From a virus (lineage: Duplodnaviria; Heunggongvirae; Uroviricota; Caudoviricetes): DNA of 36,031 bases. The position numbers and the translations under genes are program-made. The stretch lies in the IMG/VR virus record IMGVR_UViG_2519103024_000004; one strand, given 5' to 3'. Below the pieces are notes generated by a model. That model saw only the letters and a list, made by a program, of their open reading frames with translations, had not been told where the DNA came from and searched no databases. The first letter of the stretch is position 1. The number at the start of each line of letters is the position of its first letter. Positions 1,773 to 35,334 of the stretch are shown one piece after another.

Positions 1773-2786
1773 TTATATCAAGTTTAATGGGTTCTTAGTA
1801 ACGGCATCTTCAAGATGATCTGGTGAGAAATGTGAGTAAACCATGGTCATCTTGATATCCGAATGTCCCAAAATATCCCTTAGCACAAGTATGTTCCCGC
1901 CATTCATCATAAAGTGGCTAGCAAACGTATGTCGCAGCACGTGGGTGCATTGGCCATCCGGTAGATCTATACCTGCCCGTTTTACTGCTCGTTCAAAGGC
2001 TTTTCTACATGGTGAGAATAACTTCCCTCTGTTCTTTGGGAGTTCGTCATACAGCTCCTGTGATATGGGTACTGTTCTGTTTTTCTTGCCTTTTGTTTTT
2101 GTATAAGTAATTCGGTATTTCGATATTTGGTGGCCCTGCAGATTTTCGGCTTCACTCCACCGTGCGCCAGTAGCTAGGCATATTTTTGCAATCATTAGTA
2201 AGCTAGGGTTTTGAGATTCAGCACATGCCGCCAACAGGCGCTTGATTTCGTCCGTGGAAAGAAAAGCCAGCTCACCTTCGGCAATTTTGAAGGTCGGAAG
2301 TCCTGCCAGCGGGTTTGGTGCTGACCAGTGTCCTAGTTTTTTTAATGTACCGAACACAGATGATAGATTGCGCTGTTCAAGGTTTACCGTACGGGGCTTT
2401 ACGGGCGACATAAGTGTGCCATCTTCATTTCGTATTTCACCTTTTAACCGTGCTTCGCGGTATTTTGTAAAGTCACCAGCTGTCAGTTCTGAGGCGATGG
2501 GATCGCCTAGACCATTACAGATAATTCTAAGTTTCGCCATGAGGCGCTTGGGGTCTGCGAGTGTTTGACCATACAGGGAATACCAAAGCTCAATTAATTC
2601 TGATAGGCGTCGCCGATCATCCTTTTCACCCAACCACGGTTTTTTATTCACTTCTTCCATTGTGAAGCTTTCAAACGCAATGGCTTCGCCTTTCGTAGCA
2701 AATTGCTTACGCACGCGCTTGCCATTGCGTCCATTGGGATAGCACTCACACAACCATTTTCCGTTCGGCTGTTTTCTGATGGTCAT
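1773..2786 (-). CDS. int: tyrosine integrase (P2-family site-specific recombinase)
   Basis: 337-aa ORF with C-terminal HVLRHTFASH (HxxR) and MTMVYSH (Tyr) motifs; sits downstream of the repressor on the same strand as in P2 C-int. Confidence 0.9.
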   Translation of the reverse strand: MTIRKQPNGKWLCECYPNGRNGKRVRKQFATKGEAIAFESFTMEEVNKKPWLGEKDDRRRLSELIELWYSLYGQTLADPKRLMAKLRIICNGLGDPIASELTAGDFTKYREARLKGEIRNEDGTLMSPVKPRTVNLEQRNLSSVFGTLKKLGHWSAPNPLAGLPTFKIAEGELAFLSTDEIKRLLAACAESQNPSLLMIAKICLATGARWSEAENLQGHQISKYRITYTKTKGKKNRTVPISQELYDELPKNRGKLFSPCRKAFERAVKRAGIDLPDGQCTHVLRHTFASHFMMNGGNILVLRDILGHSDIKMTMVYSHFSPDHLEDAVTKNPLNLI

Positions 2787-2787
2787 A

Positions 2788-3153
2788 TCAAAGGCTCTTA
2801 ATGATTTTCAGTGCGCGGCCTACTACCTCAATGTCATCCAGACCGCACTCAAACGATGAATCATCCTGATGCACTACTAATTTGTTTCCCGGGAGCCGAG
2901 TCAATTTAACAATGCTTTTTATCCCGTCGATATCGACTAACCACATACCATTTACTGGTGGTGTTTGGTTGCGATCTATTAAATAAGAATCACCAGAAGT
3001 AGTCACCAGCAGTAGGTTGCTTGAGTCTGAGGGGAGTATGCTGCTATCAATGATTGCTTTTCCAGCATCGACCAATAAACCACCGTTGAGAGTCGCCTTG
3101 TCAATTTCAGGAGATACTAGTTCAGAAAGAGGTACAACCTTGCTGGAGTTCAC
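2788..3153 (-). CDS. S24/LexA-like autoproteolytic C-terminal domain of a CI-type repressor, separated from the HTH ORF by an apparent frameshift
   Basis: 121-aa ORF with GTG start; TSGDSY (Ser nucleophile context) and VKLTRLPGNK...SSFE resemble the LexA/lambda-CI S24 domain; its frame opens within an A7 run (minus strand, plus 3164-3170) where the HTH ORF ends. Confidence 0.55.
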   Translation of the reverse strand: MNSSKVVPLSELVSPEIDKATLNGGLLVDAGKAIIDSSILPSDSSNLLLVTTSGDSYLIDRNQTPPVNGMWLVDIDGIKSIVKLTRLPGNKLVVHQDDSSFECGLDDIEVVGRALKIIKSL

Positions 3154-3419
3154 GGAATTGATATTTTTTTAGGTTTAATGTTTGGACCTGGCTCTCCCTG
3201 TCCGGTGGTTAGCCACAGTAAAGAAACTCCTGTTTCCAAGGCGCACTGAATCACCCACTCTGCAGGAAAACTATCTCTTAAGTATCTGTTTGCCATGGTG
3301 CTTTTTGATGCGCCTAAGTGATCGCAAAGTTGCTGTCTGGACTTGAAATCATAGGCTGCCATTAGTCTATGGATAGCCTCTCTTCCCCCTGTATTCTCTC
3401 CAGCCTTTACCTGTATCAT
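3150..3419 (-). CDS. HTH DNA-binding N-terminal part of CI-type prophage repressor
   Basis: 89-aa ORF at the P2 C / 186 cI position, divergent from the early operon; Q-rich helix-turn-helix-like segment (SRQQLCDHLGASKSTMANR); AGGA ribosome-binding site upstream. Confidence 0.6.
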   Translation of the reverse strand: MIQVKAGENTGGREAIHRLMAAYDFKSRQQLCDHLGASKSTMANRYLRDSFPAEWVIQCALETGVSLLWLTTGQGEPGPNIKPKKISIP

Positions 3420-9214: not shown

Positions 9215-9348
9215 GAAACGTTGCTGGCGTCTGAACTTGCTTCTGGCGTCAGCAAGGTTGAACAACGAGCCCTTGCGAGGCGTTAGCTCTGTAGTGCATG
9301 TCTATGCCGCATGAGATCGCATGATCGTTTGAGGATCGTTTTTGCTAA

Positions 9349-9374
9349 GGCCCGCCAGAACTGGCGGGCTTTTG
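9349..9374 (+). terminator. rho-independent terminator candidate after the DinI-like gene
   Basis: GCCCGCCAG / CTGGCGGGC 9-bp stem followed by TTTTG. Confidence 0.45.
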
Positions 9375-9410
9375 CGTAGATCATGCAGGTGCATGAAAAC
9401 CACTACATAA

Positions 9411-9446
9411 AGCGGGCAGGCGTGGCGGGGATACGAGCGCGCACTC
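9411..9446. other. candidate cos (cohesive end) region
   Basis: GGCGTGGCGGGGA... resembles the start of the P2/186 cohesive-end sequence as I recall it; lies in the A-to-Q intergenic region where P2 cos sits; partial match only. Confidence 0.25.
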
Positions 9447-9642
9447 TGGGGTAAAATGGTCAAAATCCACCGCAATTTACTGGCTCGGGAACGTAGTTAG
9501 TTTTGTAGGTATAAACGGCTCTCACGTTAGATAGGCATGCAGGATGTGTTAAATCGTTGTGATGAAGTTAACGGTGACTGAGACAGTTTAGGTCTAAGAT
9601 ATAACTTCTGGGTTAGTTAAAAATTGGAATAGTAAGACATTT

Positions 9643-9939
9643 ATGAAAACTACTTATAGCTATGATTTTCAATATATGCGCAAAGGTCAGGATCGCCCTG
9701 ATGATGATGGAGAGGTTGTAGGGTGTAATTCAGAAGACAACTCGCTTTTGATGCTTCCAAATGTGGGAGACTACGTAACAATTACGAATAAGGGTGGGCG
9801 TGCTCAATTTGATGGGCGGGTGAAAACAAGGCTTTTCAATTACCTACGCATTGCTGATGGTCATGTTCATTGCTCCATTTGCATTGTAGTTGAGGAAGTT
9901 GATATGGACTCCGTATGGGGGGCACTAATTAAAGAATAA
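9643..9939 (+). CDS. hypothetical small protein (cargo between cos and portal gene)
   Basis: 98-aa ORF preceded by AT-rich promoter-like DNA; no P2 counterpart recognised; followed by a hairpin. Confidence 0.45.
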   Translation: MKTTYSYDFQYMRKGQDRPDDDGEVVGCNSEDNSLLMLPNVGDYVTITNKGGRAQFDGRVKTRLFNYLRIADGHVHCSICIVVEEVDMDSVWGALIKE

Positions 9940-9945
9940 TAGAAT

Positions 9946-9961
9946 GCCTGCAAATGCAGGC
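9946..9961. terminator. hairpin between convergent genes (possible bidirectional terminator)
   Basis: GCCTGCA-AAT-TGCAGGC inverted repeat between the 98-aa ORF stop and the Q stop. Confidence 0.35.
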
Positions 9962-9969
9962 GCTTTAAT

Positions 9970-11010
9970 TTACTCAGAAATATCTAAGTTGTAAGATTCA
10001 AAGCAAATCACTTTTTCACCTAGCCAGTTGTTCAGCTCTTGCAGCCGCTTTTGCAGTGGCATCAGTTCATTGCGGACAAACACTCGACTAGCCTTCTCCA
10101 CATCCCCAAACCCCCCGACATTATTAGGCATTATCCCCATCATTTGTGGCGGCACACGATGCGCCGCCATCATGTCGTCCCGGCTCACGTTCTTGATATT
10201 CAGGAACTCATCCTTCGCCGCCACTTCTGACAACGGGATAATCTGAAGCCCGTCCTTTTTACCGTTAGGCGAGTACATAAACAGGTTACGGAAGTTACCA
10301 GGACCTTTGGCGCTTTTCATCGCATTGCGGAGGTTGTTCACATCCTCCTGGTTCTGCGCAGCATCGGTCATGTACATGATGAAGCCTGCATGACTGCCGT
10401 TAATGTAATACTTGCGACGGAACAGCGTGGCGGACTCGTTGAGCAGGGCTGACGGAATGGCAGAAAGATAACCGGGCAGGCCGTAGATCTCCTGGTTAAT
10501 GTCCGGTTCCATCAGATGAAAAATGCTGCCTTTCGTGAACTGATACGGCTGGGTTGTCATACCGTATTGCACAAACCAGTAGGTATCCAGGTCTAACCCG
10601 CGTCGGGTGTATTTTGCCAGTGCAGGCTCAAGGGCGATAACTTCACCGAAGCGGTTCGTGCGTTTCTCCAGGTAGGCGTTACCAAAAACCAGATAGTCCT
10701 GCACAAAACGCGAAAAAGCCTGCTGGCTGAGCAGCGGGTGAGGGATGTAGGTGCTGGTCAGAATGTTGCACTTCACTGCAATCGGTGAGCTGTGATGCAC
10801 GGCGGCGCGGAAGGTTCGCGCCAGTCCGTCGAAACTCACAGGCGGCTCATACCAACGATCCATCTGTACGCATTCCACATAGTCCAGCAGTTCGCGGCGG
10901 TCCAGAACAGGAACGGGATCACCGAAGCTGAATGCTTCGGCTGAAGTCTGGCTTTTATGCTGGATCTGTTTCGTCGACGCAGCGCGGTTCTTCTTACTCT
11001 TTCCCATCAA
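9970..11010 (-). CDS. Q: portal protein (P2 gpQ-like)
   Basis: 346-aa ORF, convergent partner of P in conserved Q-P order; size matches P2 Q. Confidence 0.9.
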   Translation of the reverse strand: MMGKSKKNRAASTKQIQHKSQTSAEAFSFGDPVPVLDRRELLDYVECVQMDRWYEPPVSFDGLARTFRAAVHHSSPIAVKCNILTSTYIPHPLLSQQAFSRFVQDYLVFGNAYLEKRTNRFGEVIALEPALAKYTRRGLDLDTYWFVQYGMTTQPYQFTKGSIFHLMEPDINQEIYGLPGYLSAIPSALLNESATLFRRKYYINGSHAGFIMYMTDAAQNQEDVNNLRNAMKSAKGPGNFRNLFMYSPNGKKDGLQIIPLSEVAAKDEFLNIKNVSRDDMMAAHRVPPQMMGIMPNNVGGFGDVEKASRVFVRNELMPLQKRLQELNNWLGEKVICFESYNLDISE

Positions 11011-17890: not shown

Positions 17891-18284
17891 AGCGGTGCCT
17901 TATGTCCGCAATAACCCGGACAAACTGCATCTGTTTGTGGATAACGGTTCGCTGGTTGCCACGGGGGCCAACTCCATGTCGTGGGAGTACCGTTACACCC
18001 TGAACGCGGTGATTGAGGATTTCAGCGGCGACCAGAATCTGCTGATGGCCCCGGTTTTGCTGTGGCTGAGGGATAACCAGCCCGATGCCATCAATAACCC
18101 GGCGTTACGGGAAAAACTATTCACCTTTGAGGTGGATATTCTGCGCAACGATGTCTGTGATATCAGCCTGAACCTGCAACTGACGGAGCGTGTGCTGGTC
18201 AGCACTGACGGTAGTGTGTCGAGCGTTGAAGCTATAGCGGAACCTGATGAACCTGAAGAAATGTGGACGGTGAAACGTGGCTGA
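17853..18284 (+). CDS. R: tail completion protein (P2 gpR-like)
   Basis: GTG at 17853 with AGGAG ribosome-binding site; segments such as ...LHLFVDNGSLVA... and ...WLRDNQPD... resemble P2 R as I recall it. Confidence 0.8.
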   Translation: MNKPQSLRHALNKAVPYVRNNPDKLHLFVDNGSLVATGANSMSWEYRYTLNAVIEDFSGDQNLLMAPVLLWLRDNQPDAINNPALREKLFTFEVDILRNDVCDISLNLQLTERVLVSTDGSVSSVEAIAEPDEPEEMWTVKRG

Positions 18285-18723
18285 ACTGCAGAAAGTGGAC
18301 GACTGGCTGAGTGCCTTGCTGGCGAATCTGGAGCCAGCCGCAAGAAGCCGCATGATGCGCCAGCTGGCGCAGGAACTGCGCCGGATACAGCAGCAGAACA
18401 TCAGGATGCAACGCAATCCAGATGGCAGTAGTTATGAACCGCGACGGGTAACAGCACGCAGTAAAAAGGGGCGCATCAAACGTCAGATGTTTGCAAAGCT
18501 GCGAACCACAAAATACCTGAAAACTGCCGCCAGCGCCGATTCTGCCAGCGTGCAGTTTGAAGGCAAGGTACAGCGCATTGCCCGTGTTCACCATTACGGC
18601 TTGCGTGATCGCGTCAGCCGTAAGGGGCCACAGATACGTTATGCTAAACGTAGGTTACTTGGAATTTATGATACTGATTTTGATATTATAGAAGAGATAA
18701 TCATAAATTTTTTGATTCGTTAG
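18277..18723 (+). CDS. S: tail completion protein (P2 gpS-like) with an altered, AT-rich-encoded C-terminus
   Basis: N-terminal MAELQKVDDWLSALLANL... resembles P2 S as I recall it; the last ~17 codons lie in AT-rich DNA and overlap the 3' end of the convergent cargo gene. Confidence 0.8.
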   Translation: MAELQKVDDWLSALLANLEPAARSRMMRQLAQELRRIQQQNIRMQRNPDGSSYEPRRVTARSKKGRIKRQMFAKLRTTKYLKTAASADSASVQFEGKVQRIARVHHYGLRDRVSRKGPQIRYAKRRLLGIYDTDFDIIEEIIINFLIR

Positions 18724-19861
18724 ATTCATTAATTTTCTTAAAGTATGAGTCTATTTTTTCAATTAATAAATTGATGCTTTTTATAAATTCTTTTGTTTCT
18801 TTCTCTGTTGGTTCATGTGATGTATGAGCTATTTTGTCACGTAATTCTTTCCTGTTTTTATTTGCATGTTGCCACTCAAGTGGCGCAATTTCGGGTACAG
18901 AGATGTTAAAGAGTTGTTTGAATAGTTTTTTACATCTATCATCGAACTTCCAGTTTTTATTTAATGTTTCTTTTGTCTGGCATTCATTGATACCATTGCG
19001 ATGAAAGGCATTAATAATTTTTCTGAGAATATAGCTTTCAAGGCCTGCTGATGCTTCAATTACGGCTGATCTAAATGCACCTTTATGAACAAGATTGTCT
19101 GCTCTAATCAATAATAGTTCAGGATGTTCATTGAATTCATTTGACATTAAACGTTTTTTGAAATTATCAATGAGACTTTCATCGTGTTTATACCAGCTTT
19201 CTCTCATTAATGGGGGGATTACTCCAACTAAAGGAATTGCACTTATCTTAATACCATCGCAATAATGCTCTTGTAACACTCCGTTGGTAAATCCTGAGCC
19301 AACTTGATAAAGAGATATCTCGTCTGCAAATTGATCTTTAAAGGCAACTCTATACTGTTTTATAAAGTGGTTTATTATTCCGATACATTCCTCTGATCTT
19401 TTAGGTGGAAATATCTCTCTAGCAGTTTTTATTTTTCTCTCTAACTCTATTTTTTTATCTATATCTTGCTGGCTCATTTTGGATAGGAGCATCTCAGCAT
19501 CTTCCACAGATGGGAAGTTATCTTCTTTCCTTATTTGGTTTCTTATAGAGTTGATTAGTTCTTCATGTGATATTTCTAAAAGGTCAAAACATTCCCAATA
19601 GTTGGCGAGAGAAATAATAGTCCGGCATTTCATTATCCCTCTTTCATTTGTGTGATGTGGTAGTAGTTGTTCTCTGGTACCGATTAATAGGGTTTGAGGG
19701 AATAAGCTTGCATCTTTAAATAGTGCATAGTAATCGTTGTGAACTGTTAAGCGTAAATGGTTATTTTCATATAGAAAATCATAATCACCATCTGGAATAT
19801 TGAGGACATAAGGCAACTCGACCAAGTAACGTGCAGCAAAGATCATTTCAGTCATCTTCAT
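18701..19861 (-). CDS. hypothetical 386-393-aa protein (AT-rich cargo at the S/V junction); possible HEPN-like Rx4H motif near the C-terminus
   Basis: long minus-strand ORF in a ~1.2-kb AT-rich island inside a GC-richer tail operon; likely ATG at 19859-19861 (the track's upstream start is TTG); RDKIAH fits Rx4-6H. Confidence 0.6.
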   Translation of the reverse strand: MKMTEMIFAARYLVELPYVLNIPDGDYDFLYENNHLRLTVHNDYYALFKDASLFPQTLLIGTREQLLPHHTNERGIMKCRTIISLANYWECFDLLEISHEELINSIRNQIRKEDNFPSVEDAEMLLSKMSQQDIDKKIELERKIKTAREIFPPKRSEECIGIINHFIKQYRVAFKDQFADEISLYQVGSGFTNGVLQEHYCDGIKISAIPLVGVIPPLMRESWYKHDESLIDNFKKRLMSNEFNEHPELLLIRADNLVHKGAFRSAVIEASAGLESYILRKIINAFHRNGINECQTKETLNKNWKFDDRCKKLFKQLFNISVPEIAPLEWQHANKNRKELRDKIAHTSHEPTEKETKEFIKSINLLIEKIDSYFKKINESNESKNL

Positions 19862-19874
19862 ATGAGAATTCAAT

Positions 19875-19892
19875 TGTGCCAAAAATCATACA
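19875..19892. promoter_or_regulatory. late-promoter activator site candidate (TGT-N12-ACA) upstream of V
   Basis: TGTGCCAAAAATCATACA immediately upstream of V; lies in the divergent region shared with the cargo gene. Confidence 0.4.
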
Positions 19893-19937
19893 CTGCCACA
19901 ACGATGAAAAAAAATCTTGCTTTGCAACTATAGAAGG

Positions 19938-20516
19938 ATGAATGCACAACTAACCGAAATCATGCGCCTTATCACCAACCTGATCCGCACTGGTGTAGTC
20001 ACCGAAGTGGACAGGGAAAACTGGCTTTGCAGGGTGAAAACGGGCGAGCTTGAAACCAACTGGATCAGCTGGCTGACGCTACGTGCCGGAAATGCCCGGA
20101 CATGGTGGCGACCATCGGAAGGTGAGCAGGTGGTGCTGCTGAGTCTGGGCGGCAATCTGGAGACCGCCTTTGCGCTGCCCGCTGTCTATTCGAATCAGTT
20201 CGCACCACCGTCGACGTCGGCGGACGCCTGCGTGACAGAACATCCTGACGGTGGCTGGTTTGAATACGAACCCGCCACCGGGCGCTGGTATGTCAGGGGC
20301 ATCAAATCAATGGTCATTGAGGCCGCTGACAACATCACCCTGAAAACCAGTGAGTTTGTACTGGAGGCTGACCGCACGCGCATTAACAGTGAAGTGGTGA
20401 TCAATGGTGGAGTTACCCAGGGCGGCGGAGCGATGAGTTCTAACGGGATCGTGGTTGATGCGCATCAGCATACTGGCGTCCTGAAAGGCGGCGATACAAC
20501 CGGAGGCCCGGTATGA
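19938..20516 (+). CDS. V: baseplate spike protein (P2 gpV-like)
   Basis: MNAQLTEIMRLITNLIRTGVV... start and overall pattern resemble P2 V as I recall it; ATG at 19938 (the track start 19917 is TTG). Confidence 0.85.
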   Translation: MNAQLTEIMRLITNLIRTGVVTEVDRENWLCRVKTGELETNWISWLTLRAGNARTWWRPSEGEQVVLLSLGGNLETAFALPAVYSNQFAPPSTSADACVTEHPDGGWFEYEPATGRWYVRGIKSMVIEAADNITLKTSEFVLEADRTRINSEVVINGGVTQGGGAMSSNGIVVDAHQHTGVLKGGDTTGGPV

Positions 20517-21767: not shown

Positions 21768-22365
21768 TCTGCTGCCACCGGGTTCAACACCACTGGAGCG
21801 CCGATTGGCGCATACGTGCAGCGGGATTTCTGATCTGAAGGTGCCGCTGCGTGACTTGTGGAATCCGGCTACCTGTCCGGTCAGCTTCCTGCCTTATCTC
21901 GCCTGGGCGTTCTCTGTGGATCGCTGGGACGAGGGCTGGACAGAAAGCGTCAAACGCCAGGTGGTGAAGGATGCTTTTTATATTCATCAGCATAAAGGGA
22001 CCACCAGTGCCGTGCGGCGGGTGGTGGAGCCGTTCGGCTTTCTGATCCGCATTATTGAGTGGTGGCAGACCGGAGAAACACCGGGCACGTTTCGCCTGGA
22101 TATCGGCGTGCAGGACCAGGGCATCACTGAAGATACCTATCTGGAACTTGAGCGACTGATAAGCGATGCCAAACCATGTAGCCGCCACATGATCGGCATG
22201 TCCATCAATCTGCAGACCAGCGGCCCGCATTGGGTGGGAGCCGCCAGCTATCTTGGCGAAGAAATCACGATCTATCCGTATATCAACGGAACGATTATTT
22301 CCGGTGGCACCGCGCATGAAGGCGGGGCGGTCCATGTTATTGACACAATGAGAGTGAATCCATGA
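21760..22365 (+). CDS. I: baseplate/tail protein (P2 gpI-like)
   Basis: 201-aa ORF overlapping the J stop and H start. Confidence 0.8.
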   Translation: MNSLLPPGSTPLERRLAHTCSGISDLKVPLRDLWNPATCPVSFLPYLAWAFSVDRWDEGWTESVKRQVVKDAFYIHQHKGTTSAVRRVVEPFGFLIRIIEWWQTGETPGTFRLDIGVQDQGITEDTYLELERLISDAKPCSRHMIGMSINLQTSGPHWVGAASYLGEEITIYPYINGTIISGGTAHEGGAVHVIDTMRVNP

Positions 22366-24146
22366 GCACAAAATTTTATACCCTGCTGACGGATATTGGC
22401 GCGGCGAAACTTGCCAGCGCCGCCGCGCTCGGTGTGCCGCTAAAAATTACCCATATGGCGGTGGGCGATGGCGGCGGAGTATTGCCAACGCCGGACGCAA
22501 AGCAGACGGCACTGGTAAATGAGAAACGCCGGGCTGCGCTGAATATGCTTTATATCGACCCGCAGAACAGCAGCCAGATTATTGCTGAACAGGTGATCCC
22601 TGAAAACGAGGGCGGTTGGTGGATACGTGAAGTGGGCCTGTTTGATGAGTCCGGGGCATTGATTGCCGTGGGCAACTGCCCGGAAAGCTATAAGCCGCAA
22701 CTGGCTGAAGGCAGCGGGCGCACCCAGACCGTGCGCATGGTGCTGATTACCAGCAGTACGGACAATATCACCCTGAAAATCGACCCTGCTGTAGTGCTGG
22801 CAACCCGTAAATACGTGGATGATGAAGTCCTGGAATTAAAGCTGTATGTGGATGACCAGATGAGAAACCACATTGCCGCACAAGATCCTCATACCCAGTA
22901 TGCGCAGAAACATAATCCGACATTTACCGGAGAACCAAAAGCGCCGACGCCTGCAGCAGGAAATAACACCACGCGGATTGCGACCACTGAGTTTGTTCAG
23001 GCCGCTATTACTGCTCTGATTAACGGTGCGCCAGCCACGCTGGACACACTGAAAGAAATTGCCGCAGCCATTAACAATGACCCGAAATTCAGTACCACCA
23101 TTAACAATGCGCTGGCACTAAAAGCACCGCTGTCGAGTCCGGCACTCACCGGAACGCCAACAGCACCTACTGCGGCACAGTCGGTCAACAATACACAGAT
23201 TGCCACTACAGCTTTTGTGAAATCAGCGATTGCAGCAATGGTGGGTTCTGCACCCGCGGCACTGGATACACTGAACGAACTGGCGGCGGCACTGGGGAAT
23301 GATCCGAACTTTGCCACGACAATGCTTAATGCGCTGGCAGGTAAACAACCGCTGGACAATACGCTTACCAATTTGAGTGGAAAGGATGTAGCTGGTCTTC
23401 TCGCATACCTTGGTTTGGGAGAAGGCTCTGCATTACCTGTTGGTGTGCCTGTTCCGTGGCCCTCCGCAACCCCGCCAACGGGCTGGCTGAAATGCAACGG
23501 CGCTGCCTTTGATAAGGTGAAATATCCCCATCTTGCTACAGCATATCCATCAGGGAAACTACCTGATCTCCGTGGTGAGTTTATTCGTGGATGGGATGAC
23601 GGGCGTGGTATTGATGCAGGACGTGCTTTATTGAGCATTCAGACTGGGATGCTGGAAAAACACCGCCATATTGTTGTTGCCAACGATGGGTATGATTCAA
23701 AAGAGGAATGGGAACTGGCGACAATCTTCAGAAGAGCATATACGCAAGGCCGGGGCTTGATGCTGCCGATGCCNNNNNNNNNNNNNNNNNNNNTTGGTTT
23801 GGGAGAAGCGGCAAAAAAGAATGTGGGGACAGGGACGAATCAGATACCTGATATGGGTAGCTTCACGCTTTCTGTTTCAGGTACTGGATATCAAAAATTA
23901 CCATCTGGTTTTATTCTTCAGTGGGGCTCAATCGGCGCACCAGGCATTGCACAGGATGTGGTAACCCATTTTCCGATTGCATTTCCAAACCGATGTCTGC
24001 GTGTTTTGGTCTCACAAGACTACACACCAGATAGCGGGGCTGTTGGTTATATTGCCTGTGCAGGTTTTAGTCCCGACCCGGTTAAATTTATATCCAGAGC
24101 CAGTACTCCTGGCCTCGGCGCTTCATTTTTAGCGTTAGGCTGTTAA
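22362..24146 (+). CDS. H: tail fibre protein (P2 gpH-like); assembled ORF spans a 20-N gap, so the C-terminal part is uncertain
   Basis: Ala/Thr-rich repeats, then a tail-collar-type receptor-binding segment ([18 protein letters not shown]...[17 protein letters not shown]); Ns at 23774-23793. Confidence 0.7.
23410..23773 (+). repeat. copy A of the tail-fibre variable segment (plus orientation), truncated by the N gap
   Basis: reverse complement of 25289-25652, including the first codons of the alternative tip; differs by a one-base G-run length (G4 at 23752-23755 versus C5 at 25317-25321). Confidence 0.6.
23774..23793. other. assembly gap (20 N)
   Basis: run of n characters in the sequence. 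Confidence 0.99.
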
Positions 24147-25652: not shown

Positions 25653-25672
25653 NNNNNNNNNNNNNNNNNNNN
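25653..25672. other. assembly gap (20 N)
   Basis: run of n characters in the sequence. Confidence 0.99.
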
Positions 25673-33766: not shown

Positions 33767-33982
33767 ATGATGAATTGTCCGTTGTGTGGTCAGGCCGCAC
33801 ATACTCGCAGTAGTTTTCAAGTCTCCTCTCAAACCAAAGAGCGTTACAATCAGTGCACTAATATTGAGTGTGGGCATACGTTTGTAACGCATGAAACCTT
33901 TGTTCGTTCTGTTTGTCGTCCCGAGAAAATCAGTGCCGCCCCACCGCATCCCAAAGGGATGCAGGAGCAATTAGTTTACTGA
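33767..33982 (+). CDS. ogr: late gene transcriptional activator, zinc-finger (P2 Ogr-like)
   Basis: CPLCG...C-x4-C zinc-finger pattern in a ~71-aa ORF at the Ogr position; GAGGAG ribosome-binding site. Confidence 0.8.
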   Translation: MMNCPLCGQAAHTRSSFQVSSQTKERYNQCTNIECGHTFVTHETFVRSVCRPEKISAAPPHPKGMQEQLVY

Positions 33983-34008: not shown

Positions 34009-34084
34009 AATAATATCGAGACAGTTATTTGATTTTTGACACAAGAAGAATGCAAATGATTTTTTAAAATTATTCTATAATAAC

Positions 34085-34798
34085 TTATTTGATTTTAAAT
34101 ATTTCATGAATAGAGAACTCTTTTAATTCATTGCTTTCGTCTTCAACTCTGGTCTTTTCTTCATTAAATTCGTTAAATAACTCATCAAATGGTCTATGAG
34201 TTAAAGAGTTGTATGGGGAGTTAGGGTTTATTTCATTTATTAGTGCGATATACATATTTGTTGCCTGCATGCCTAACTCAAAAACATCAGCGGTAAGTTG
34301 GTTTAGTCTTATTCCTTTTTCTGTGTTTAAGCTTATATTCCAACGAGTTAATGAGCCAATTATAGATCTTGCCTTGTAGGCTGAACTTGTTGCTTTTTCA
34401 ATGTTTTTTGCTGCTTCATCGAGCTGTTTAACTAACTGAGGGTCCTTGGGGTTATTAGTGTTTTTATAAATCTTAATAAGTGTCATATTTAAAAATAAGC
34501 TTGAAAAACTATCTATGCAATCATCGAGAGACATCAATGCTGTATCTATTTTACTAATGGCATTATCGGATAGTTTATCTTTAAATAAGTTTTTGAATGC
34601 ACGAACGGCGTAGGTAGCTAAAATAATATTTGTTGTAGCTATTATAATGTCACTTACAGTCCCCGTATAGTTTGGGGCAATGCTTAATGAACGAAGGCAA
34701 AGATAAATAAACTGCATACAGGCTAAGATTAAAAGGACAAAAACTATTATCACAAGATATCTATTAACTGGCATTTTTTTGTTCAGGTTGAAGTCCAT
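34085..34798 (-). CDS. hypothetical membrane-anchored protein (AT-rich cargo between ogr and ssrA)
   Basis: 237-aa ORF with one or two N-terminal hydrophobic helices and a charged helical C-terminal region; AT-rich. Confidence 0.55.
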   Translation of the reverse strand: MDFNLNKKMPVNRYLVIIVFVLLILACMQFIYLCLRSLSIAPNYTGTVSDIIIATTNIILATYAVRAFKNLFKDKLSDNAISKIDTALMSLDDCIDSFSSLFLNMTLIKIYKNTNNPKDPQLVKQLDEAAKNIEKATSSAYKARSIIGSLTRWNISLNTEKGIRLNQLTADVFELGMQATNMYIALINEINPNSPYNSLTHRPFDELFNEFNEEKTRVEDESNELKEFSIHEIFKIK

Positions 34799-34921
34799 AG
34801 TAGCCTCATATTGAGATTAGAATATAGCTTGAAAGTAGAGGCGTGTGTGCGATCACTCATAAGGATAGAGGGCAATGTGGGTGTACCCAACCCTAGTCCA
34901 TGGCTATCGCCATTTTGCCGC

Positions 34922-34961: not shown

Positions 34962-35334
34962 TTGTTTTATTTGGTGGAGCTGGCGGGAGTTGAACCCGCG
35001 TCCGAAATTCCTACATCCTCGGTACTACATGCTTAGTCAGTCTTTACATTCGCTTGCCAGCTGCGGACGGACACGCCACTAACAAACTAGCCTGATTAAG
35101 TTTTAACGCTTCAACCCCAGGCAGGGCTTCCACGCGATCTCTTTTGGGTTTGACCTCTCTTGATCCCCGTCCTAAGAGCGGAGGCTAGGGAGAGAGGGCT
35201 CTAAGCAGGTTATTAAGCTGCTAAAGCGTAGTTTTCGTCGTTTGCGACTATTTTTTGCGGCTTTTTACGAGGCCAACCGCCCCTCGGCATGCACCTTGGG
35301 TTTCGCAAATCCCGTCGAATCCAGAATCAGCCCC
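34962..35334 (-). ncRNA. ssrA: tmRNA (transfer-messenger RNA)
   Basis: reverse complement begins GGGGCTGATTCTGGATTCGACGGG and ends ...GGTTCAACTCCCGCCAGCTCCACCA; encodes the ANDENYALAA tag; matches E. coli ssrA as far as I can recall. Confidence 0.9.

Follow-up and report, generated by a model that had tools for sequence, protein, structure and literature searches.

What does a single AT-rich gene, antisense to its neighbors, do between two late tail genes of a prophage? The window, which is the whole stretch of 36,031 nucleotides analyzed here, is a P2/186-type prophage integrated next to ssrA, with the tmRNA gene at 34972-35334 and smpB at the right end. It is approximately 96% identical to a prophage in E. 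coli MS 57-2. The initial annotation had pointed to an AT-rich block of about 1.2 kb in a GC-richer tail region, and base composition bears this out: the block at 18666-19937 (1.27 kb) has a GC content of 0.329, against 0.535 across the remaining prophage. GC drops from approximately 0.55 to 0.28-0.37 over ~18600-19900, with the lowest 300-bp windows at 0.28. Two further stretches of the window are just as AT-rich (~1-1800 and ~34050-34800), and both are cargo positions.

The limits of the block were established by alignment with phage 500465-1, which has no insert. Homology is lost near 18665, inside the tail completion gene S (18277-18723, plus strand), and returns exactly at the start codon of V at 19938. 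The cassette (18666-19937) is composed of the 3′ tail of S, the cargo gene, and the spacer between cargo and V. S has a GC content of 0.55 in the first 390 nt, falling to 0.21 in the final 57 nt; these last ~19 codons (18666-18723) lie in the cassette and run into the 3′ end of the cargo gene, with an overlap of 23 bp. Because homology stops near 18665 and the AT-rich tail is still S-like (LLGIYDTDFDIIEEIIINFLIR in the window vs LLGVNDDVEAMTRDMILQWLAG in 500465-1), the exchangeable unit is the S tail together with the cargo. The baseplate gene V (19938-20516, plus strand) is the first gene of the V late operon, as assigned from alignment with 500465-1, Cartapus, and P2 and from the RefSeq annotation of related prophages. 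The cargo-V spacer of ~63-90 bp includes a TGT-N12-ACA dyad (19875-19892, plus strand), read directly from the sequence and predicted to be the Ogr-activator-type site of the late promoter pV. Its center lies ~55 bp before the start of V, an arrangement matching that of the activator site (10239-10266) and V transcription start (10308) annotated in P2, and the dyad is conserved in three distant loci with a cargo relative (L003, L004, and L007). The block showed no direct or inverted repeats at its flanks, no tandem repeats, and no match to Rfam, so insertion by a transposon-type element and an RNA antitoxin like that of ToxIN were both rejected. A promoter and terminator scan of the block returned sites no more often than expected by chance, with no terminator after S and no promoter-like site for the cargo gene. 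The only two additional ORFs of at least 50 aa in the block are on the opposite strand, within the cargo gene.

The cargo gene occupies 18701-19846 on the minus strand and encodes 381 aa beginning with MIF, an assignment based on the ORF list, phrog_28299, and the starts of homologues. ORF coordinates agree with the earlier description of a gene convergent with S and divergent from V. The long minus-strand ORF of the initial annotation is also present, but its pairing of 393 aa with 18701-19861 is slightly off: the longest ORF (18701-19882) gives 393 aa from a TTG at 19882, whereas ATG 19861 gives 386 aa and ATG 19855 gives 384 aa. The phrog_28299 profile matches end to end from residue 10 of the 393-aa ORF (E 2.7e-277) and homologues mostly begin at MIF, so the true start is probably ATG 19846 (381 aa) or ATG 19855 (384 aa). 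Residues are numbered here in the 384-aa form. The gene was found in 21 of 5,426 complete E. coli genomes at 99.5-99.9% DNA identity, including enteropathogenic E. coli (EPEC) E2348/69, and an intact ORF is also represented by a cluster of 278 sequences. In the 21 genomes and throughout the databases, the product is named "hypothetical protein." Neither tblastn against 50,697 deposited phage genomes (INPHARED) nor a scan of one genome per species gave a match to the cargo.

A two-domain protein with a predicted HEPN effector

The protein had earlier been described as belonging to no recognized structural-gene family, and searches of Pfam, NCBIfam, and PADLOC, which returned nothing significant, agree. 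No Pfam HEPN model matched at E≤10. The suggested PADLOC check of the protein matched no known or candidate defense model: in v2.0.0, which includes ApeA, PD-T7-3, PD-T4-x, and the PDC candidates, nothing scored below E 0.37, the value for CARF_HEPN_CSX20. Applied to 43 relatives, PADLOC gave two weak Csx1/Csm6 matches and no other. A match to CysRS/tRNA-synt_1e (residues 68-147; 21 bits vs a cut-off of 27) was read as chance because the SKMSQ stretch behind it is not conserved in the family, and matches to MobP2 and a group II RT were rejected (E>0.008, far under the cut-offs). A profile search of PDB sequences and a Foldseek search of BFVD gave no match. A search with the N-terminal domain returned neither RnlA nor LsoA, and an RnlA-like architecture was therefore dropped.

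Relatives were found in larger collections. A word-indexed search of 5.8 billion proteins yielded 20 clusters, of which those named by organism were from Enterobacterales. An exhaustive HMM search of 1.84 billion representatives recovered 198 proteins at E≤1e-3; ~45-70 of these, counted as representatives at 50% clustering, are full-length (350-415 aa), and the remainder share only the C-terminal ~150 residues. An AlphaFold2 model built from a 20-sequence alignment was confident (pLDDT 83.6, pTM 0.76), with a β-rich region containing a helical insert at residues 1-225 and an all-helical C-terminal part. The former corresponds to an N-terminal α/β domain (19181-19855, minus strand), a proposed sensor or regulatory domain with invariant E13, P15, N162, and G192; the latter contains a predicted HEPN-fold domain at residues ~245-384 (18704-19123, minus strand). 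The RDKIAH sequence that had been noticed in the C-terminal region is there, at 18824-18841 on the minus strand, and provides an Rx4H motif (R339...H344). When 43 full-length relatives (20-68% identity) are aligned, just seven columns show no variation: the four in the N-terminal domain together with R262, R339, and H344. In 57 remote proteins aligned over the C-terminal domain, the motif R and H are the sole invariant columns, and the consensus is RNxVIH; the residue after the motif R is D or H in closer relatives and N in this remote consensus. Some of the 57 have weak Pfam matches of their own, 12 to HEPN_Apea (best E 1.5e-4), 9 to HEPN (4.6e-4), and 5 to HEPN_RiboL-PSP (4.3e-5). The C-terminal domain therefore has both the all-α helical-bundle fold and the Rx4-6H motif of the HEPN superfamily. 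We conclude, on modeled fold and motif rather than on membership in a curated sequence family, that this domain is of the HEPN type and bears the signature of a catalytic one. In one remote relative (P0120, 632 aa), the family C-terminal domain at 258-404 is followed by a Pfam HEPN_AbiU2 domain at 439-625, and that protein appears to carry two HEPN-type domains.

The Abi2/AbiD/AbiF proteins (Pfam Abi_2) are HEPN-type abortive-infection proteins with an Rx4H motif. The initial annotation had named the Abi2/AbiD family in its HEPN reading of the C-terminal region; fold and motif uphold the HEPN part, but membership in that family fails, as Pfam gave no Abi_2 match at E≤10 and only a subthreshold tRNA-synt_1e. 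According to a report cited in a passage of bioRxiv 10.64898/2026.02.22.705581, AbiF is controlled by an RNA antitoxin, whereas no RNA element was found in the cargo block by Rfam and repeat scans. ApeA, an abortive-infection tRNA anticodon nuclease (bioRxiv 10.64898/2026.01.26.701840), resembles the cargo protein in combining a HEPN RNase domain with an extra, in its case ligand-binding, part in one protein, and is linked to it by the 12 of 57 remote C-domain relatives that weakly match HEPN_Apea. However, neither the cargo protein nor its 43 relatives match ApeA in Pfam or PADLOC, and the N-terminal domain of the cargo protein has no match. DARNA/PD-T7-3, an infection-activated single-protein HEPN defense that cleaves tRNA (bioRxiv 10.64898/2026.02.22.705581), likewise joins HEPN to a second domain, of unknown fold, but in reversed order, with an N-terminal HEPN carrying R117x4H122 in 456 aa, and the cargo protein lacks a PADLOC match. 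HepS of the Gifsy-1 prophage is a single HEPN domain protein that defends by cutting tRNA on activation (PMC13043305). Its solved chain of 218 residues lacks an N-terminal domain such as that of the cargo, it belongs to a different phage type and genomic position, and the profile search of PDB sequences detected no relationship. As for RnlA/LsoA, Pfam gives no match, and small ORFs adjoin the gene neither in the window nor in 17 related loci. MNT-HEPN systems (HepT/MntA) differ in that the cargo has only S and V as neighbors, with no minimal nucleotidyltransferase gene. By every membership test applied to its sequence, the protein is outside ApeA, DARNA, HepS, RnlA/LsoA, MNT-HEPN, and Abi2. 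HEPN defenses and P2 hotspots are already well known; what is new is best described as the fusion of a predicted HEPN effector with an N-terminal domain not seen before, and Pfam, NCBIfam, and PADLOC v2 contain no model of the family.

The S/V slot and its occupants

The initial annotation had placed P2 orf30 at the S/V junction and had proposed the gap as a cargo slot. The P2 annotation confirms the first point: orf30 encodes 261 aa on the minus strand between S and V and is annotated "nonessential." The literature counts its position among three regions where P2-like phages carry morons (PMC6823313), and the present cargo has the features of such a P2-type moron: a single gene at S/V, antisense to the late operons, and of deviant base composition. 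P2-like prophages are known reservoirs of defense genes (PMC13586616; PMC9122126; PMC9519451). Studies of their defense hotspots center on the GpA-portal (old/tin) and Z/fun positions (PMC9122126; PMC9519451; bioRxiv 2024.10.15.618418), and downstream of GpL a 2026 survey places defense genes "within the tail genes," with S/V not resolved (PMC13586616).

The proposed comparison of S-V junctions across P2-like prophages was carried out in E. coli, where a related S/V backbone is present in 1,040 of 5,426 genomes, using an evenly spaced sample of 50 junctions with both S and V matched. The slot was empty (1,094 bp) in 34 of the 50. The occupied junctions held DUF6216 genes (8), the present gene (2), hypothetical genes (3), and one each of DUF2971, FRG-domain, and DUF5677 genes, making DUF6216 the commonest cargo in the sample. 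About one-third of S/V slots are therefore occupied, by at least eight unrelated cargo types, each a single antisense gene with a GC content of 0.31-0.37. An AT-rich S tail of its own accompanies seven of the eight other cargos, P2 orf30 being the exception; the empty slot has a GC content of 0.52 there. These results support the slot proposal and indicate that it is interchangeable among unrelated antisense single genes. The other cargos share slot, orientation, single-gene organization, and GC range with the present one but are set apart from it by sequence; no similarity was detected between any two S/V cargos, the present gene and P2 orf30 included, and in this set a HEPN fold with a conserved Rx4H is documented for the present cargo, the one whose structure was modeled. 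The DUF2971 cargo matches the PADLOC candidate PDC-S31 and the FRG cargo matches PDC-S15. In E. coli BL21/T7 Express (NZ_CP060121.1, 853791-855867), the slot holds an antisense, AT-rich DUF6216 gene of 268 aa. DUF6216 and P2-like phages are reportedly mentioned in a preprint on the silencing of immunity genes by H-NS.

All 17 retrieved loci with a relative at least 33% identical (13 from IMG/VR and 4 from assemblies) have it at the S/V position, antisense and alone between V and S, with a cargo GC content of 0.32-0.37 against 0.54-0.61 in the flanks in each locus. The earlier statement that no partner immunity gene is visible is thereby sustained, with S and V as the sole neighbors and no partner conserved in the loci of relatives. 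Identities of cargo, S, and V fall into three tiers (99/99/99%, 41-46/62-66/64-68%, and 33/43/52%). That cargo identity drops together with S and V identity is more suggestive of long residence in the slot, the cargo evolving faster, than of recent insertion; cassette exchange among related phages may be an alternative explanation for a pattern with three tiers. More distant relatives (20-30% identity) are solitary genes outside P2-type phages, with no neighbor shared across nine loci. Two of these nine have a defense-type neighborhood. In the first, the relative shares an island with a YobI ATPase and the PADLOC candidates PDC-S64 and PDC-M15A (L011); in the second, the relative P0025 (30% identity, 666-1805) begins one base after an AriAB (PARIS)-like gene (3-665; PADLOC E 7e-26), an arrangement that could reflect either neighboring defense genes or a common operon (L019). 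The remaining seven are uninformative; other distant relatives have an MqsA-type pair or resolvase and AAA genes in the vicinity, or capsule genes alongside. In EPEC E2348/69 (NC_011601.1, 859234-896504), the prophage has a different gene order: a recombinase gene and the tail sheath operon directly adjoin the cargo, and S is a truncated pseudogene several kilobases off, beside the tail-fiber gene. This rearrangement is consistent with an invertase-mediated inversion.

Proposed function and rival explanations

The gene is intact and conserved, its product combines a HEPN fold with an invariant motif, its antisense position is fixed, and no partner is conserved with it. The best explanation for the block is a lysogenic-conversion cassette that a P2-like prophage carries in the gap separating two of its late operons, and that for its product is a two-domain cytoplasmic protein with an N-terminal α/β domain that has no known relative. 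On balance, we lean toward a self-contained, infection-activated HEPN RNase that would cause abortive infection in the mode of ApeA, DARNA, and HepS, while belonging to none of them. The protein would be expressed from the prophage in the lysogen, antisense to silent late operons, and kept inactive by its own N-terminal domain or oligomeric state until a cue from an infecting, unrelated phage was sensed, presumably through the N-terminal domain. Paired HEPN domains would then form a metal-independent RNase site cutting cellular RNA, most likely at tRNA anticodon loops, and a halt in translation would abort the infection. The pairing, the cue, and the tRNA target are proposed by analogy with ApeA, DARNA/PD-T7-3, and HepS. 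The genomic context, with defense or candidate defense genes by some distant relatives and PADLOC-matching slot mates, fits a defense role. Counting against such a role are the absence of a PADLOC match for the protein and of any defense assignment in PADLOC for its 43 relatives beyond the weak ones above, the lack of a promoter-like site or a curated HEPN match, the restriction of defense-type neighborhoods to two of nine distant loci, and the need of a solitary toxic RNase without an antitoxin for a mechanism of autoinhibition. The resident phage would also have to escape its own cargo, and a late-phase shut-off through promoter occlusion and antisense transcription is a reasonable idea, because the short spacer contains the pV site and transcription of S enters the 3′ end of the cargo.

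Several other functions were weighed against this one. If the protein were the toxin of a toxin-antitoxin pair with an overlooked partner, such as a small protein, antisense RNA, or host factor, it would stabilize the prophage with no phage sensing. This is unlikely, given that no MNT, RnlB-like, or other small ORF adjoins the gene in 17 P2-type loci, no neighbor is conserved elsewhere, and neither a repeat array, an Rfam RNA, nor a Pfam RnlA match was found; in addition, the slot is empty in about two-thirds of related prophages, and the cargo is therefore dispensable for prophage maintenance. The protein might instead serve the phage itself, by degrading RNA of the host or a competitor in the lytic cycle, by excluding superinfecting P2-like phages or P4, or by countering a host defense. 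Cargo identity in step with S and V over three divergence tiers suggests a long vertical association with the phage, and a cargo start 20-45 bp from the pV activator site may place expression under late gene control. Nevertheless, in all loci the cargo runs antisense to the two late operons, it is present in only 21 of ~1040 E. coli genomes with this backbone and in no INPHARED phage genome, the slot is interchangeable with unrelated cargos, and distant relatives exist outside phages, all of which leave a phage-serving role with a small chance of being correct.

HEPN domains are sometimes non-catalytic, as in sacsin, and the domain here could have a binding or regulatory role, or the protein could be some other lysogenic-conversion factor, with no nuclease involved. 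We consider this distinctly unlikely, because R and H, at Rx4H spacing, are strictly invariant even in very distant relatives, a pattern that marks catalytically active HEPN domains. The strong AT bias, missing annotation, and lack of a promoter consensus would also suit horizontally acquired DNA that is decaying and has no present function; an ORF intact in 21 E. coli genomes (99.5-99.9%) and in a 278-sequence cluster, and ~45-70 full-length representatives with conserved motifs and a confident fold, make this hardly credible.

The abortive-infection reading can be extended in a speculative direction, which we regard as a long shot when all its parts are taken jointly. The family would be a long-term S/V resident whose sensor is tuned against the tail or baseplate proteins of its own phage; it would recognize foreign virion-assembly proteins, as HepS does tail tips, and coevolution with S and V would spare self. 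Late-phase switch-off would come from Ogr-activated occlusion at pV and antisense read-through from the O operon, and AT-richness would be held by selection (for example, H-NS-type silencing) and be no trace of recent transfer. If these parts were true together, the S/V slot would be a defense hotspot with built-in self/non-self logic. Confirmation of the abortive-infection RNase would itself add a defense family that current defense-annotation libraries miss, one in which a sensor-like domain with no structural relative is attached to a HEPN effector, and would put S/V (the orf30 position), third among the classical P2 moron slots, beside the well-studied old/tin and Z/fun hotspots as a reservoir of candidate single-gene immunity. 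The slot is occupied in common laboratory and pathogenic E. coli, by a DUF6216 cargo in BL21 and by the present gene in EPEC E2348/69, and its cargos could therefore influence phage susceptibility and the outcome of phage therapy. The trigger and the means by which the resident phage avoids self-killing are tractable questions, and strict slot residence with lasting AT-richness, together with the unexplored set of S/V cargos, is worth following up.

Other features of the prophage

The repressor gene cI is present as two ORFs in different frames on the minus strand (2788-3153 and 3150-3419), one with a helix-turn-helix-like N-terminal part of 89 aa and the other with a Phage_CI_C part of 121 aa; this reflects either a frameshift, and possibly a defective prophage, or a sequencing error. 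Runs of 20 N at 23774-23793 and 25653-25672 fall in the tail-fiber/invertible region, and the first breaks the tail-fiber ORF 22362-24146. The GpA-portal (old/tin) hotspot (9286-10046) is almost empty, with a single 98-aa ORF (9643-9939) that has no Pfam or PADLOC match; the MS 57-2 prophage has ~3 kb at this position, including a TIR-domain gene. Between ogr (33767-33982) and the tmRNA gene lies an AT-rich ORF of 237 aa (34085-34798, minus strand) with a hydrophobic N-terminal stretch and no Pfam or PADLOC match, another gene at a cargo position. At the left end of the window, two adjacent plus-strand ORFs (1-891 and 1049-1759; GC ~0.32) both match the PADLOC dCTP-deaminase defense model PDLC02373, over profile positions 145-292 and 333-527 (E 1e-34 and 9e-93), and the second also has a Pfam dCMP/cytidine deaminase domain. 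This looks like a dCTP-deaminase gene that is split or cut by the window end. The ORFs lie just outside the integrase gene (1773-2786, minus strand), the int-att cargo position described for P2-like prophages (PMC13586616).
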